Below, in pieces: positions 52,499-59,519 of a DNA stretch of 64,000 bases. The notes beneath the pieces were generated by a model. That model worked only from the letters and a program-made list of their open reading frames with translations, had not been told where the DNA came from and did no database searches. This stretch comes from a virus. The stretch is taken from positions 26,163 to 90,162 of IMG/VR virus record IMGVR_UViG_3300041407_000075; one strand, written 5' to 3'. Position 1 is the stretch's first letter, and the number at the start of each line of letters is the position of its first letter. A program made the position numbers and the translations under genes.

Positions 52499-52504
52499 GA
52501 GTAA

Positions 52505-53272
52505 ATGAGAATGACCAAACTAGAGAAAAAGAATATGAAACGTGGGGATATCTACAACACAAAAAATGGCGATTTGGAAATTCGAGTGGTCATCAGTGCT
52601 AATGAGGTTGTGGTCAGGTTTGTAGATACAGACTATTTTACAATTACCACTAAATCTAATATTTGCAGCGGTAAGATTAAAGATCTGATGAAACCAAGTG
52701 TTTTTGGTATTGGTTTTATGGGTGCAGGTAAATATAATATAAATAATGCACCGACAGCCTACCAAAAGTGGACATCCATGCTTCAGAGGTGCTATCGGGA
52801 GAATTCCATTAGCTGGGAACGGTATGGAGGTAATGGGGTTACTGTTGCGGAAGAGTGGCATAACTTCCAAAACTTTGCAGAGTGGTACGAGAGTTACAAA
52901 TATAAGGAGGATGGGTGGCACCTAGATAAAGACATCCTCATAAAAGGTAATAAACTGTATTGCAAAGAATCCTGCTGTATTGTACCTAGAATTATAAACC
53001 AATCTCTCGTCTCTAGAGTTGGACTGAGGGGTGAGTATGCAATTGGAGTTACGTGGGATGAAAAAGCTAGCAGATACTCTGTAATGCTAAATGCTCACCA
53101 TACACACTACAAAGCATTTCGACAGATGTACAGGAGCGAGCGTGAAGCATTTATGGAGTACAAAGCCGCAAAAGAAAGTTATCTTGTTGCATTAGCATAT
53201 GAATGGAGGGGGCGTGTAGCCCCTAAAGTATTGAAAGCCTTAGTAGAGTATGAAGTTGAATGGAACGATTAA
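52505..53272 (+). mobile_element. HNH homing endonuclease
   Basis: GKIKD...PSVFGIG, W..MLQRCY, WHNFQNFAEW, HLDKDIL.KGNKLY. Confidence 0.88.
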
Positions 53273-53454
53273 TTGAAGATTTGTGTGAACATTGCGGCGA
53301 GTTAGAAGACTTATGCCCATGTTATTTTTCTGATTATGTATTTGAAGAGTTTGAATTTAAACCCCGATTTGAATACGCATTCGAACATTTAACCAATGAA
53401 AACAGCATATTTAAAAAGAATTTGCCAATAAAGTAACTAAAATAACTTACCCTA

Positions 53455-53483
53455 TTGCTTTTTACTAGAATAGGGTATATAAT
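53455..53483 (+). promoter_or_regulatory. sigma70 promoter
   Basis: TTGCTT-17-TATAAT. Confidence 0.65.
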
Positions 53484-53921
53484 TTCTCTTATGAACTGAG
53501 GAAATCTCAATGAACGAAGAATACGATGGTTTGATTGATAGTTGGAAAGATTATATTTCCGGTGTTGGTGAAGGTTGTACAAATGAATGGGTATGACTCC
53601 TGAATCCTTTACATACTGGCCCCAAGGCTTCGTAGAACTCTCTGAGTCTGATGCAGTCCCTAATGAAAAACAATGGTTGATGATTAAAGATCATTTGAAA
53701 CTTGTGTTTGATAAAAAGACGCCTGAGCGTGCTTTTGAAATTAAACCTTAAATTAATCTAGGTGACGGTGTTGATTACAAAAGGTTGTCTGACTTGATTG
53801 GTAAGAAAGCTGATCCTAGCTATTGGCAATTTGATCCTTATCAAGTGACTTGTTAAAAGTTTAACAAACTGACCACACTTATCCATCAACGGTGGATGCT
53901 AATGTGCAAAAGGTCAGTATT

Positions 53922-54004
53922 GCGGGTAAACATGCTGTCTTAACTATTTGTGAAGCGCTTCACGGTAGAAAGGTCGAGGGTTGGATTCCCTAATAACCGC
54001 TCCA
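53922..54004 (+). ncRNA. tRNA-like RNA lacking a canonical anticodon loop
   Basis: Acceptor GCGGGTA/TAACCGC + TCCA; T arm AGGG-TTGGATT-CCCT; central stem GTGAA/TTCAC with a 4-nt loop. Confidence 0.5.
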
Positions 54005-54006
54005 AT

Positions 54007-54091
54007 TTTGAAGTGTAGGCGAAAGCCCCGAAGTCGATACCGGGTCAGAGAATGATTACTGGCAGCTCCATGAAAAGAGTGACACTTCAAA
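54007..54091 (+). ncRNA. multi-branch structured RNA
   Basis: 10-bp closing stem TTTGAAGTGT/ACACTTCAAA around about four short hairpins including GGC-GAAA-GCC. Confidence 0.6.
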
Positions 54092-54141
54092 TTAGTTTCA
54101 CCCCAACACGAAGATCAAATTCTAGAAAGTTGGGTTTCTCC

Positions 54142-54308
54142 GTCGCTATCCTCTCTCTTATGGCGACTCTTAAAGATTAGGGTTTCTCTCCTCCCCAAAG
54201 TCTTTACTCATTGGTGCTGCCTCTCCTCAGCTATCAGTGAGCTTTCTAAATAATCTTGTTGTTCTATAACGATAATACCAGTGATCTGGTCAGGGTTATT
54301 TAGAAAGT
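54142..54308 (+). ncRNA. tandem-hairpin RNA with CU-rich (anti-SD) loops
   Basis: Hairpins 54142-67, 54171-206, 54207-41 and 54242-308; G-U pairs indicate the plus strand. Confidence 0.65.
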
Positions 54309-54345
54309 ATTATTCCTCATGTGTTTTGTATATACCTAGTCGGGT

Positions 54346-54417
54346 TCCAGTTAGTTCAGAGGTAGAACACTCTTGATGAAAAGAGAGGATAGTCGGCGAG
54401 TCAGATAAGCCACTGGA
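54346..54417 (+). ncRNA. degenerate tRNA-like RNA
   Basis: Acceptor TCCAGT/ACTGGA; canonical D arm AGTTCAGAGGTAGAAC; stem CTCTT/AAGAG with a 6-nt loop; no TTC T-loop. Confidence 0.45.
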
Positions 54418-54455
54418 CAGAACACAGCAGAAATATTATTTATAGGTAAAGTATA

Positions 54456-54857
54456 ATGGCTAATAAAAAAGAACAAACTGAAGCTCAGAAGAAGACTAGG
54501 TTTGATGGTGAGAAATCTAACCGGAATGTCCGGGGCAACAGTAAAATTCGAATCCAGAAGTCCAAGTTGCGTGATACTGCCTCCAAACTTCGTGAAATTG
54601 AACCAACTGCACTTGAGAATATTAAGAATAGTGTAGAAGGTAAAGATGTTGAAGCTAAGATGCTTTCTACTTCACAATGGGTGATTACGTCAATCATCGC
54701 GCTGGACCGTGCAGCAGCAGGTGAGGAAGCTTCTCTAACTAAGCTTCGTATGGAAGGTAAGCGAGACGATTCCGATGATGAACAAGAAGTTGCAGAGATT
54801 GTAAAACTTGTTCCTCGTTTGAAGCTTACATTTGATGAGCCTAAAGTAACAGAATAA
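54456..54857 (+). CDS. possible terminase small subunit
   Basis: KTRF..E.S.RN..G N-terminus, helical core, upstream of terL; mainly a positional inference. Confidence 0.45.
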   Translation: MANKKEQTEAQKKTRFDGEKSNRNVRGNSKIRIQKSKLRDTASKLREIEPTALENIKNSVEGKDVEAKMLSTSQWVITSIIALDRAAAGEEASLTKLRMEGKRDDSDDEQEVAEIVKLVPRLKLTFDEPKVTE

Positions 54858-54866
54858 AAGAATTAC

Positions 54867-54940
54867 GCGATTAAGCTCAAGGTGAGTCGTCACCCTTCCA
54901 AGGTGTACAGAGTAGATTTCGATTATCTCTAGTCGCTCCA
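54867..54940 (+). tRNA. tRNA-Gly (TCC)
   Basis: Acceptor GCGATTA/TAGTCGC, U discriminator + CCA, anticodon loop CT-TCC-AA, T-loop TTCGATT. Confidence 0.78.
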
Positions 54941-55166
54941 AACACAGCTTCGGCTTGTGTATCTGAGAACTTGCCTAGTTCATTCAGAAAGCTAATCTGG
55001 CGGTTAGCTAAAAATCTTAGCCAGCTTAAGAACTGGACGGTTGACCCTCGTTACTGTGTCGTGTGGAGAAGGTAGGTTTACTTTTAGAACCTAAGAGTCT
55101 GGTTTCCGGGTAGGTGGGAGAATCAGCACTTATTATTCAATCAGCAGCTAATCTCAAGGTATTAAT

Positions 55167-55469
55167 ATGGCACAAAGTACAATTTTAGCTGCTGGTATTA
55201 CAGAAGCGACTTCAACAGATATCGTTATTGCAGCAGGTGCTTCAGTGGTGGTTGGTGTATTCTTTCTAGACGCTGATAAGCCTCTATCTTACCAAGAGCA
55301 AAACGCACCTAAGTTTAAGATCCTTCAAGACACTCCCGGAGCTGACAATGCTGTATTCGTCGCATTGAGCTATAGCAACCCCTCCACTGTCTTGTCTGGT
55401 CCCGGCACTTATCGTGTGAAGCGTTATGCTTATGTTGGCAAACCTTTTGGTGTATTTCTAGAGACTTAA
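55167..55469 (+). CDS. hypothetical protein, probably virion-associated
   Basis: Beta-rich; LSGPGTYRV.R; AAGG RBS. Confidence 0.6.
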   Translation: MAQSTILAAGITEATSTDIVIAAGASVVVGVFFLDADKPLSYQEQNAPKFKILQDTPGADNAVFVALSYSNPSTVLSGPGTYRVKRYAYVGKPFGVFLET

Positions 55470-55473
55470 TTTT

Positions 55474-56862
55474 ATGATGACTCATGATATTACATCTTCA
55501 GTTATCAGTTCTATTTCAAGACCTCCTCATATCTTCAAACTAAAGCATTCTGTCTTAACTCCTGATCCCACAACTACACCCTTCACATCATCTCAGTTCG
55601 TTCCAGGCTTTGCAGGCTCTCTTAATACAACTAAGAATACTGCTCGTGTATACGCCTACGGTGCTTTGACATTGTGGTGTGGATGGATTACAGGGACGCA
55701 AGCGTTGCTTACATCTCCATCAGATTATGGTGACAACGCCGGGTCTATGCAAGTGAGTGTAGATGGTGGCGACTTCATCAGCGCTCCTAATTCTGCATCT
55801 GTATACACTCTCTTCACAGGTCTTCCTCACGCTACCTACTTTGTTCAAGTCAGGTGGGTAGTGCAGATGGGTGATGCTCCTTATGTAGCATCCTCGGGAA
55901 ATGTCTTGAGTGTTACAGGTCAACCTCCAGCACTTGTTGCAGCATCTAATTGGATTCAGGCAGGCAGTGATTCAGCTACAGGATTGTACTCTGCGGGGAC
56001 CATACCGAACGTTGCAGGATATTCCCCGCTTCTACAAGCACCAAGTAATGTAACCAGTGGTTCTAACGTGGGCTCTGTGAAGATACGTGGTGCATTCACT
56101 AAGATTGTAGCTACATCCTCTAGAGTTGGTGTGAGTAAGAATGGTGGTACACCCACTTATTACACAGCTGCTCCTGAAGCTGATGGTGTTCCTCGTGCTA
56201 TTGTTATTCCTTGTGATGGCTCTGTAGCCACATATAACGTGTGGGATGGTGGTGCATTCAGAGAGCTTGGTGGACATTTTGCTGTAAGTGGCAATAGTAC
56301 ACTGCTTGATATTGGTGTCCGAAGAAAGCTTGACCAGTTTGGTGACAGCATCACTTACGGATCTGGTCCGGGAGCTACCTCAGTCAACACTGAGACAATG
56401 CACGTAGCAGCAGCACTTGGGTTTGTTGGTAGCACGAATGGTGTTAGTGGACAAACAGTAGGTGGTGGTAAGGCAATGATTGATGCCGCCTTGGCTATGA
56501 AGACTGTAACAGCCAATGATGTAGCAATTCTAGCACTAGGTGGTAACAGCGGGTCTGGTGGCATTGATAGCACAGAACAAGCTGATTATGGATTGTGTAT
56601 TGATAAGCTGCTGGCTAAAGGATATGGCAAAGTATTGTGTCGTGGGATTCTGCCAAACATTGGTGCTCCAGAACTGGTTAATGCTGCAAACGTCACATTG
56701 AAAGCTGTGATGGATGCTAAAGCTAATCCTAAGCTTATCTGGATTGATACCCTCACATGGACAGACTTTGAGACATTGGATAATACGCATCCTACGGCTA
56801 ATGGTTATCTTACATTGGCAGGTTATGCTATCCCGGCTTATACGGCTGTCTTGGGGTTGTAA
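55474..56862 (+). CDS. SGNH/GDSL esterase with N-terminal beta domains
   Basis: FGDSIT (Ser), GVSG, LGGN, DNTHP (DxxH). Confidence 0.8.
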   Translation: MMTHDITSSVISSISRPPHIFKLKHSVLTPDPTTTPFTSSQFVPGFAGSLNTTKNTARVYAYGALTLWCGWITGTQALLTSPSDYGDNAGSMQVSVDGGDFISAPNSASVYTLFTGLPHATYFVQVRWVVQMGDAPYVASSGNVLSVTGQPPALVAASNWIQAGSDSATGLYSAGTIPNVAGYSPLLQAPSNVTSGSNVGSVKIRGAFTKIVATSSRVGVSKNGGTPTYYTAAPEADGVPRAIVIPCDGSVATYNVWDGGAFRELGGHFAVSGNSTLLDIGVRRKLDQFGDSITYGSGPGATSVNTETMHVAAALGFVGSTNGVSGQTVGGGKAMIDAALAMKTVTANDVAILALGGNSGSGGIDSTEQADYGLCIDKLLAKGYGKVLCRGILPNIGAPELVNAANVTLKAVMDAKANPKLIWIDTLTWTDFETLDNTHPTANGYLTLAGYAIPAYTAVLGL

Positions 56863-58601: not shown

Positions 58602-59519
58602 TTGAATTACACTAAAATCTATAATGCTCTTGTTGAAAAAGCTAAACTTCGCGGCCTCGATAAAAGCCAGCATGAGGGTTACTTTGAAATTCATCATATT
58701 CTCCCTAAGTGTTTGGGAGGGGCTGATGATGATTCAAATTTAGTAATGTTTACTGGTCGTGAACACTTTATTGCACACATGTTAATGTGGAAAGCTAATC
58801 CCAACGATGTGAGTCTTCAACGTGCTGCTTGGATGATGAGTGCTCGTAATGTCTGCAAAGTAAATTCTAGACTTTATTCAGCCATCCAAGAAGTAAAGAG
58901 AAAAGAAGCTTCTGAACAGATGAAAGGTCGATACTTTAAAGACCTTACAGGTAATCGTTACGAACGACTTGTTGTAGTTAGTCAAGGTGATCATTATTAT
59001 ACTCCGAGTGTACTTCGGTACACTCGCTGGAATTGCGTATGTGATTGTGGGAATGAAAAGCTTATTAATGCAGGTTCTTTAACCAGTGGAAACACCCGTA
59101 GTTGTGGTTGCTTAGCTTATGAAGTTAGGAAATCCTATGCGGGTAAAACATATGATGAAGAAACGAAAAAGAAGTTTAGATACCTCACAGGTGAAGATCA
59201 CCCGTCATACGGCACAAAGTACAGTGAAGAACGAAGAGCTAAAGCCGCCGCTGCTCGCAGGGCTTTAGACCTGAAAGCTTGGGAAATCTCTTCTAAGGTA
59301 AGTTCAACCGGTCATGATCGTTGGTTAATTGCAGACTACTACCATGAACTCTGGCTATATTTTGAAAAGCCCGGAATTAAGAAATTTGCAAAGTGTTTTA
59401 ATGAAACACATAACGACGAAACAAAACACACAAGTTATACCACTCTAATCAATATGTTTAATACAGGTTGGATTCCTTTAGAAGATGAGGAATGGATTAA
59501 ATTTTCTAAAGGTAATTAA
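58602..59519 (+). mobile_element. HNH homing endonuclease with NUMOD-like repeats, directly upstream of terL
   Basis: NY..IY..L, EIHHILPKCLGG, NLV..T.REHFIAH, DLTGNRY, CVCDCG, GEDHPSYG. Confidence 0.88.

Follow-up and report, generated by a model that had tools for sequence, protein, structure and literature searches.

A conserved tRNA-linked phage RNA with repeated anti-Shine-Dalgarno-like hairpin loops at the head of the structural-gene block

Locus and architecture of the RNA element

The window, i.e. the whole stretch of viral DNA analysed here, comprises 64,000 nucleotides and corresponds to bases 26163-90162 of a 90,162-bp IMG/VR virus record (IMGVR_UViG_3300041407_000075) rated 100% complete. 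All positions refer to this window. A stretch of approximately 700 nt without convincing ORF is bordered at its 5′ edge by a small ORF assigned to phrog_35763 (53587-53751, + strand) and at its 3′ edge by an ORF of 133 aa (54456-54857, + strand), and the RNA element described here is located within this stretch. An HNH endonuclease gene lies upstream of the element, while genes for terminase, portal and head protease follow downstream. According to the terminase, the Pseudomonas phages phiPMW (42% identity) and vB_PsaM_M1 (38%) are the nearest cultured phages. A PHA-depolymerase-like gene used in the search for the host matched metagenome proteins only. Also, HNH-type homing-endonuclease-like ORFs were noticed at 52505-53272 (255 aa), upstream of the RNA cluster, and at 58602-59519 (305 aa). 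The latter matches HNH and NUMOD3 weakly and immediately precedes the gene for the large terminase. Where the late block starts, a 462-aa ORF (55474-56862) carries a C-terminal GDSL-like lipase/acylhydrolase domain (E 6.5e-10) and had no PHROG match.

An earlier note on this DNA had described three hairpins with anti-Shine-Dalgarno (anti-SD) loops, and RNAfold reproduced them exactly at 54142-54167, 54171-54206 and 54207-54241. The hairpins themselves were thus confirmed, while the feature proved larger than noted: they form the central part of a five-hairpin RNA of approximately 219 nt (54094-54312, + strand) that also includes a 5′ word, a hairpin on either side and a linker. The element starts with the conserved word AGUUUCACC (54094-54102, +), which is invariant in alignments A1 and A2, followed by HP0 (54102-54134, +), for which folding and homologues gave a covarying 6-bp stem and a conserved 21-nt loop, ACGAAGAUCAAAUUCUAGAAA. 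The CU-rich linker UUUCUCC (54135-54141, +) is unpaired in both MFE and centroid structures and represents a possible fourth anti-SD-like site; CU-rich linkers recur among homologues. RNAfold then placed HP1 at 54142-54167 (+; 8-bp stem; loop CCUCUCUCUU at 54150-54159), HP2 at 54171-54206 (+; 8+3-bp stem; loop UUUCUCUCCU at 54183-54192) and HP3 at 54207-54241 (+; 13-bp stem with one bulge; loop CCUCUCCU at 54220-54227). The fold ends with HP4 (54242-54307, +), a long A/U-rich hairpin consisting of a 17-bp outer stem and an inner hairpin, with no U-tail. HP4 might stabilise the RNA or serve as a site of double-strand-specific processing.

Several further assignments were considered and set aside. 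HP4 does not qualify as an intrinsic terminator, being A/U-rich and devoid of a U-tail, and a scan of 52500-55500 detected neither a terminator-like nor a promoter-like site on the + strand at the element. A likeness of GACUCUUAAAGAUUA to lambda boxA was dropped, since only UUAAAG is conserved in the family and mostly forms the base of HP2. Pairing of the HP0 loop with the 5′ strand of HP4 was dismissed as well, since L003-type members differ in this strand but not in the HP0 loop.

The region of HP1 to HP3 (54142-54241, +) folds with −32.8 kcal/mol (z = −5.71; 0 of 200 shuffles folded as well in RNAfold), compared with −22.1 kcal/mol (z = −1.07) for the opposite strand of this 100-nt segment. 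The full-length element (219 nt) gives −66.7 kcal/mol (z = −6.38) on the + strand and −51.3 kcal/mol (z = −1.45) on the − strand. Among 955 paired cells of the first, 17-row model alignment, 84 were G-U/U-G and 14 A-C/C-A, a count that favours the + strand, although this alignment was fitted to a + strand model and is biased in that direction. The assignment to the plus strand, for which G-U pairs had already been cited, is therefore retained on the basis of both the G-U count and the poor fold of the minus strand.

Homologues, stem covariation and loop motifs

To find homologues, loci were gathered from viral and metagenome contigs via the downstream 133-aa protein and via DNA patterns. A covariance model, R1, with rough E-values, was built from six close sequences. 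It identified one full copy in each of 31 distinct phage contigs. Every copy lies on the same strand as the late genes, and the bit scores range between 249 and 22. The carriers are a group of uncultured soil phages, and the element was single-copy in all six near-complete genomes searched whole. Among 20 more distant loci, 15 were matched by the model; of the five unmatched ones, L065 is without upstream DNA and L061, L080/L081 and L083 have CU-loop hairpins of a different build. A blastn search of 53600-54600 against 50,697 phage records gave no match, and neither the loci nor the whole records of the cultured relatives phiPMW and vB_PsaM_M1 contained a match to the model. A pattern derived from the HP0 word had 0 matches in 185,579 species genomes; thus, no bacterial or prophage copy was found in this set that could give a clue to the host.

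In the 31-row model alignment, 94.2% of 1721 cells at paired positions can pair, compared with 65.0% in shuffles, and none of 500 shuffles reached the observed value. Double changes occur in 56 of the 60 base pairs, and pairing falls to 39-45% when the partners are slid by 1-3 columns; the alignments behind these counts had been fitted to the model structure, which favours structure. Single-sequence folds of the homologues, which are alignment-free, recovered the same series of hairpins. All parts of the fold contribute double changes: 6/6 pairs in helices 1-2 (HP0; 100% paired), 8/8 in helix 3 (HP1; 89.7% paired), 11/11 in helices 4-5 (HP2), 12/13 in helices 6-7 (HP3) and 19/22 in helices 8-9 (HP4). 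The earlier observation of similar loops on differing stems, made within one sequence, therefore holds across the 31 homologues. Stems that covary around constant CU-rich loops are the opposite of the pattern that had been named as speaking against a functional RNA, namely loops that are not conserved while stems vary.

Single-sequence folding of the 31 RNAs yielded 87 hairpins with CU-rich loops, with three such hairpins in 26 RNAs, two in four and one in one. CUCC is present in 86 of these loops, UCUCC in 79, UCUCCU in 73, CUCUCCU in 63 and CCUCC in 15. In the first 16 RNAs, the loops were 7 to 17 nt long, and the motif does not keep a fixed place within the loop, a pattern expected for a base-pairing seed rather than for a shape-specific protein site. 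GGAG is absent from all 31 RNAs, which leaves the loops without a partner inside the molecule. When the whole genome was scanned crudely for CU-loop hairpins, noise was too high for anything but the known cluster to stand out.

The loops had further been proposed to complement a frequent RBS form of this genome. This holds for the class but not for the exact sequence: SD motifs of the GGAG(A/G) class are common, with GGAGA in 42 and GGAGAG in 11 of 161 initiation regions, whereas AGGAGAG, the full complement of CUCUCCU, occurs in only five of the 161.

Hairpins at corresponding places in the loci missed by R1 are recorded here as separate observations. L083 (3150-3500) shows four hairpins with CCUCCUCC(U) loops, close to the motif of the cuckoo RNAs discussed below. 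L080 (3150-3500; L080/L081) has two hairpins with CCUCC-containing motifs at the same place, and L061 (3260-3420) a two-hairpin version, likewise at the same place.

tRNA linkage and Shine-Dalgarno classes of early and late genes

In eight of the 31 members (L007, L015, L010, L022, L069, L071, L074 and L077), the first base of the element is at the same time the last base, the A of CCA, of a tRNA gene called by ARAGORN. The abutting tRNA is specific for Thr in six cases, for Leu in one and for Gly in one. The first A of AGUUUCACC is therefore likely a processing boundary. In six further members, 80-141 nt separate the element from the end of an upstream tRNA, and this gap contains another small structured module. 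In L076 (3170-3478), a tRNA-Gln starts 6 nt after the 3′ end, so that this copy has tRNA-type processing signals at its 3′ flank. ARAGORN reported 0 tRNA or tmRNA genes in the window itself.

The element is always located at the head of the structural-gene block and is part of a cluster of tRNA-type RNAs at this position. In loci whose downstream region was read, the gap to the first late ORF is 15-150 nt, and this ORF is usually the 133-aa gene; between the element and this usual neighbour, an 842-aa ORF (from 443) is inserted in L010 and four ORFs (the first from 592) in L002. These short gaps, the tRNA abutment in 8/31 members and the lack of a promoter or terminator of its own make it likelier that the RNA is cut from, or left on, a long transcript, and it is probably cut from it. 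Accordingly, the phage sRNA proposed in the earlier note does not look like the product of a stand-alone gene, no promoter or intrinsic terminator having been found at it and the start coinciding with a tRNA end in these eight members. Cleavage would be expected from RNase E, Z or P and from RNase III.

For comparison of SD classes, ORFs of at least 40 aa were taken from a simple, crude caller, and the best SD of at least 4 nt within 20 nt was used. The late class comprised the block from the element on (terminase, portal, protease onward), and the opposite-strand class comprised the polymerase and other early/middle genes. In the genome studied here, GGAG is found in the initiation regions of 12/36 late versus 51/90 opposite-strand genes, and GGAGA in 5/36 versus 28/90. 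Across eight carrier genomes, GGAG[AG] is present in 57/288 (20%) late and 274/626 (44%) opposite-strand genes, with the same direction in 8/8 genomes and p<0.05 in seven; the genomes are related, so the pooled counts are not independent events. Late genes of the eight genomes favour AAGG(A/T)/TAAGG instead (129/288 versus 184/626). The difference persists among genes of at least 100 aa (GGAGA in 37/250 late versus 87/269 opposite-strand genes). Duplexes predicted between the loops and the translation initiation regions (TIRs) of this genome are also more stable for opposite-strand genes, with a mean of −11.2 kcal/mol (n=91) versus −8.9 kcal/mol for late genes (n=35; Mann-Whitney p=7.9e-5). 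G007, in which the two hairpins have CCUCC-containing motifs, carries GGAGG in 27/86 early genes versus 4-12 per 65-90 in the seven others, a co-variation of loop motif and SD that rests on this one complete genome.

Two relatives without a match to the model served as controls. No bias was seen in phiPMW (GGAG[AG] in 14/27 late versus 30/66 early genes), while vB_PsaM_M1 is biased (9/32 versus 45/83; p = 0.028 for late versus all other genes). The split between AAGG(A/T)/TAAGG sites in late genes and GGAG(A/G) sites in early/middle genes is likewise present in vB_PsaM_M1 and absent from phiPMW. Since a phage without a detectable element is also biased, the difference between early and late genes lends weak support to pairing of the loops with SD sequences and could be characteristic of the phage group as such. 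At the gene adjacent to the element, GGAG was found in the region −25..−1 in 0/24 orthologues, which makes masking of this RBS in cis unlikely.

Possible role of the loops and relation to described RNAs

Searches of Rfam (release 15) gave no match in the whole window at gathering score, and at E<=10 only four chance-level matches in 53600-54600 (HOTAIR_2, two snoRNA families and 6A). Literature searches likewise brought up no account of this RNA. RNAs with several anti-SD-loop hairpins are already known; what is new here is that the RNA is phage-borne and tRNA-linked, carries the UCUCCU motif and has two extra conserved hairpins. The nearest described architecture is that of the alphaproteobacterial cuckoo RNAs (RSs0680/CcsR, SmelC397 and relatives), in which 2-4 adjacent hairpins each expose the same anti-SD-like loop motif CCUCCUCCC on stems with almost no sequence conservation and many compensatory changes (PMC4615179). 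Pyrimidine-rich loops on adjacent hairpins with unconserved, covarying stems are found in the phage RNA as well, and with three CU-loop hairpins in 26/31 members, two in 4/31 and one in 1/31 it resembles them in hairpin number and size. However, CCUCCUCCC or CCUCCUCC occurs in 0/87 loops, no Rfam family model matches, and instead of an independent alphaproteobacterial chromosomal gene with its own start and terminator there is an element in phage genomes that abuts a tRNA in 8/31 members. The phage RNA thus differs in being phage-borne, in the addition of HP0 and HP4, in its frequent fusion to a tRNA 3′ end and in the lack of its own promoter and terminator.

The nearest experimentally proven mechanism is that of Listeria LhrC, which blocks translation by binding the SD region of lapB through three redundant CU-rich sites with UCCC (PMC4132741). 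Three redundant CU-rich sites in loops and a single-stranded stretch are common to both RNAs. LhrC is an RNA of about 100 nt from a stand-alone chromosomal gene with terminator in a Gram-positive host, and no homology to the phage RNA was detected. Unpaired UCCC, which characterises LhrC and other UCCC-loop sRNAs (RsaE, RNAIII hairpins), is found in only 5/87 loops here, compared with CUCC in 86/87. The phage RNA is therefore not a member of the cuckoo or LhrC families. Nor does it carry GGA loops on the transcribed strand as in the CsrB/RsmY/RsmZ sponges (0 GGAG in the + strand RNA), an ARAGORN cloverleaf as in tRNA or tmRNA, or the promoter and GC-rich hairpin with U-run of a stand-alone sRNA bounded by an intrinsic terminator.

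C-rich-loop sRNAs such as S. aureus RNAIII and RsaE pair with RBSs. We tentatively prefer a reading in which the element gives rise to a non-coding RNA that base-pairs with GGAG(A/G) RBSs through its redundant loops. Structure, strand, loop conservation, position and the SD bias between gene classes are observed, while we infer transcription, processing, pairing in trans and the regulatory outcome. The RNA of approximately 219 nt would be made within a rightward transcript that carries tRNA-type RNAs and then the structural (late) genes. Processing at the 3′ end of the tRNA would probably define where it begins, and the long HP4 duplex would define its 3′ side. The three hairpins and the CU-rich linker would display redundant unpaired UCUCCU/CUCUCCU motifs that pair with GGAG(A/G)-type SDs on other mRNAs and thereby block 30S binding; this pairing might also make the duplex accessible to nucleases. 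Host mRNAs would be targets, as would the phage's own early/middle mRNAs; late genes would escape through their mostly AAGG(A/U)-type sites. Whether this amounts to an early-to-late translational switch, in which masking of host and early/middle GGAG(A/G) sites makes the RNA an RNA-only counterpart of T4 RegB/RegA, is more doubtful, and we regard it as a speculative extension.

Phage takeover of translation is known mainly from proteins, such as RegB, RegA and ribosome modifiers. If the RNA does act as such a switch, it would belong to an unrecognised class of phage regulators acting on the Shine-Dalgarno interaction itself, and masking of one RBS class would be a simple RNA-only mechanism for temporal control and host shut-off as well as a compact natural part to turn off GGAG-type translation. 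What makes the element worth attention is an RNA with several copies of an anti-SD-like motif at the boundary of early and late genes, under unusually clean selection, i.e. frozen loops on free stems in 31 genomes. The nearest phage logic is that of T4 RegB, which inactivates early mRNAs via GGAG SDs and spares late ones (PMC3014915). Its consensus, GGAGRAYARAA, is similar to the GGAGA(A/G) sites for which early genes are enriched in the phages studied here. RegB is a protein endonuclease and RegA, which also controls early mRNAs (PMC1702504), a protein repressor, while the agent proposed here is an RNA. A RegB homologue (PF10715) had no match in this genome, a weak result because the control genomes were likewise blank.

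Protein sponges, too, are built from copies of one motif carried on variable stems, and the loops might titrate or recruit an RNA-binding protein such as S1, a cold-shock protein, Hfq or a phage regulator. S1, cold-shock proteins and Hfq prefer single-stranded pyrimidines. Retention of UCUCCU in 73/87 loops is stricter than complementarity to the 4-nt GGAG core needs, and pairing of loops with SDs leaves the second, unrelated conserved loop of HP0 unexplained. Furthermore, S1 takes part in the GGAG-directed control of T4 (PMC3014915). On the other hand, such wide variation in loop size (7-17 nt) and motif position is unusual for a structure-specific site, no candidate protein was found, and the neighbouring proteins had no RNA-binding Pfam or PHROG match; we consider a protein platform rather unlikely. 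About the same small chance is given to a role in cis, as a leader of the late operon or as a cassette for its processing. Kept on the late mRNA or cut from it, the hairpins would then affect this transcript alone and serve RNase cleavage or stability or, by analogy, Rho loading or blocking at YC-rich loops, or antitermination. The element does lie 15-150 nt upstream of the first late ORF wherever this was read, even where genes are inserted (L010, L002), the distance from HP4 to the start codon is too short in most members to accommodate a promoter, and HP4 is a long duplex without U-tail. Yet the adjacent RBS carries no GGAG complementary to the loops (0/24), the element of L076 is followed after 6 nt by a tRNA and thus not directly flanked by mRNA, and a mere processing or stability cassette needs no conserved loop sequence in three hairpins.

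Mimicry of the 16S rRNA 3′ end, which the earlier note had offered as one option, fits poorly. A decoy of this tail could absorb a factor or defence nuclease that recognises the anti-SD, and three copies of CUCCU, a sequence common to the loops and the 16S tail, would suit it. However, the canonical CCUCC core is present in only 15/87 loops, CUCUCCU being dominant with 63/87, and the motif sits in closed hairpin loops rather than in a free 3′ tail; for this host group we know of no factor recognising the anti-SD. We judge this reading very improbable. Hardly credible at all is a functional minus strand with AGGAGAG (GGA) loops like those of the CsrB/RsmY/RsmZ sponges, which bind CsrA/RsmA. GGA does fall within a hairpin loop in the complement of every loop, but the minus strand folds no better than shuffles (z = −1.45 and −1.07), G-U cells outnumber A-C cells by 84 to 14, each of the 31 copies has the same orientation as its flanking genes and tRNAs, and Rfam gave no CsrB/Rsm match. 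The related proposal that the loops sequester RsmY/RsmZ gained no support from any test run. Pairing of the loops with GGAG(A/G) RBSs remains the explanation that we tentatively favour.

Stable small RNAs are also present in the tRNA cluster of phage T4 (species 1 and 2, or RNA C and D). These are non-tRNA structured RNAs beside phage tRNA genes with tRNA-type processing, in which respect they resemble the element described here, and they are not known to carry anti-SD loops. The 'tRNA regions' of phages in this clade contain structured RNAs beyond tRNAs.

Other structured RNAs near the element were noted in passing. At 53923-54003, a tRNA-shaped remnant has an acceptor-like stem and a T-arm-like GGGUUGGAUUCCC and ends with ...CCGCUCCA; it received no ARAGORN call, does not exceed shuffled sequences in folding (z = +0.58) and is without relative among the fetched loci. 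Just upstream of the element, 54004-54093 forms a compact 90-nt multi-arm RNA closed by a 10-bp helix (z = −2.76), of which a 94% identical copy is located between tRNA-Met and the element of L003 (L003:2621-2708). Downstream of the element, at 54332-54425, a cloverleaf-like RNA with a D-arm-like GUUCAGAGGUAGAAC and without T-loop likewise had no ARAGORN call. Copies occur in L022 (95%) and L080/L081 (81%), and this, too, may be a conserved RNA derived from a tRNA.
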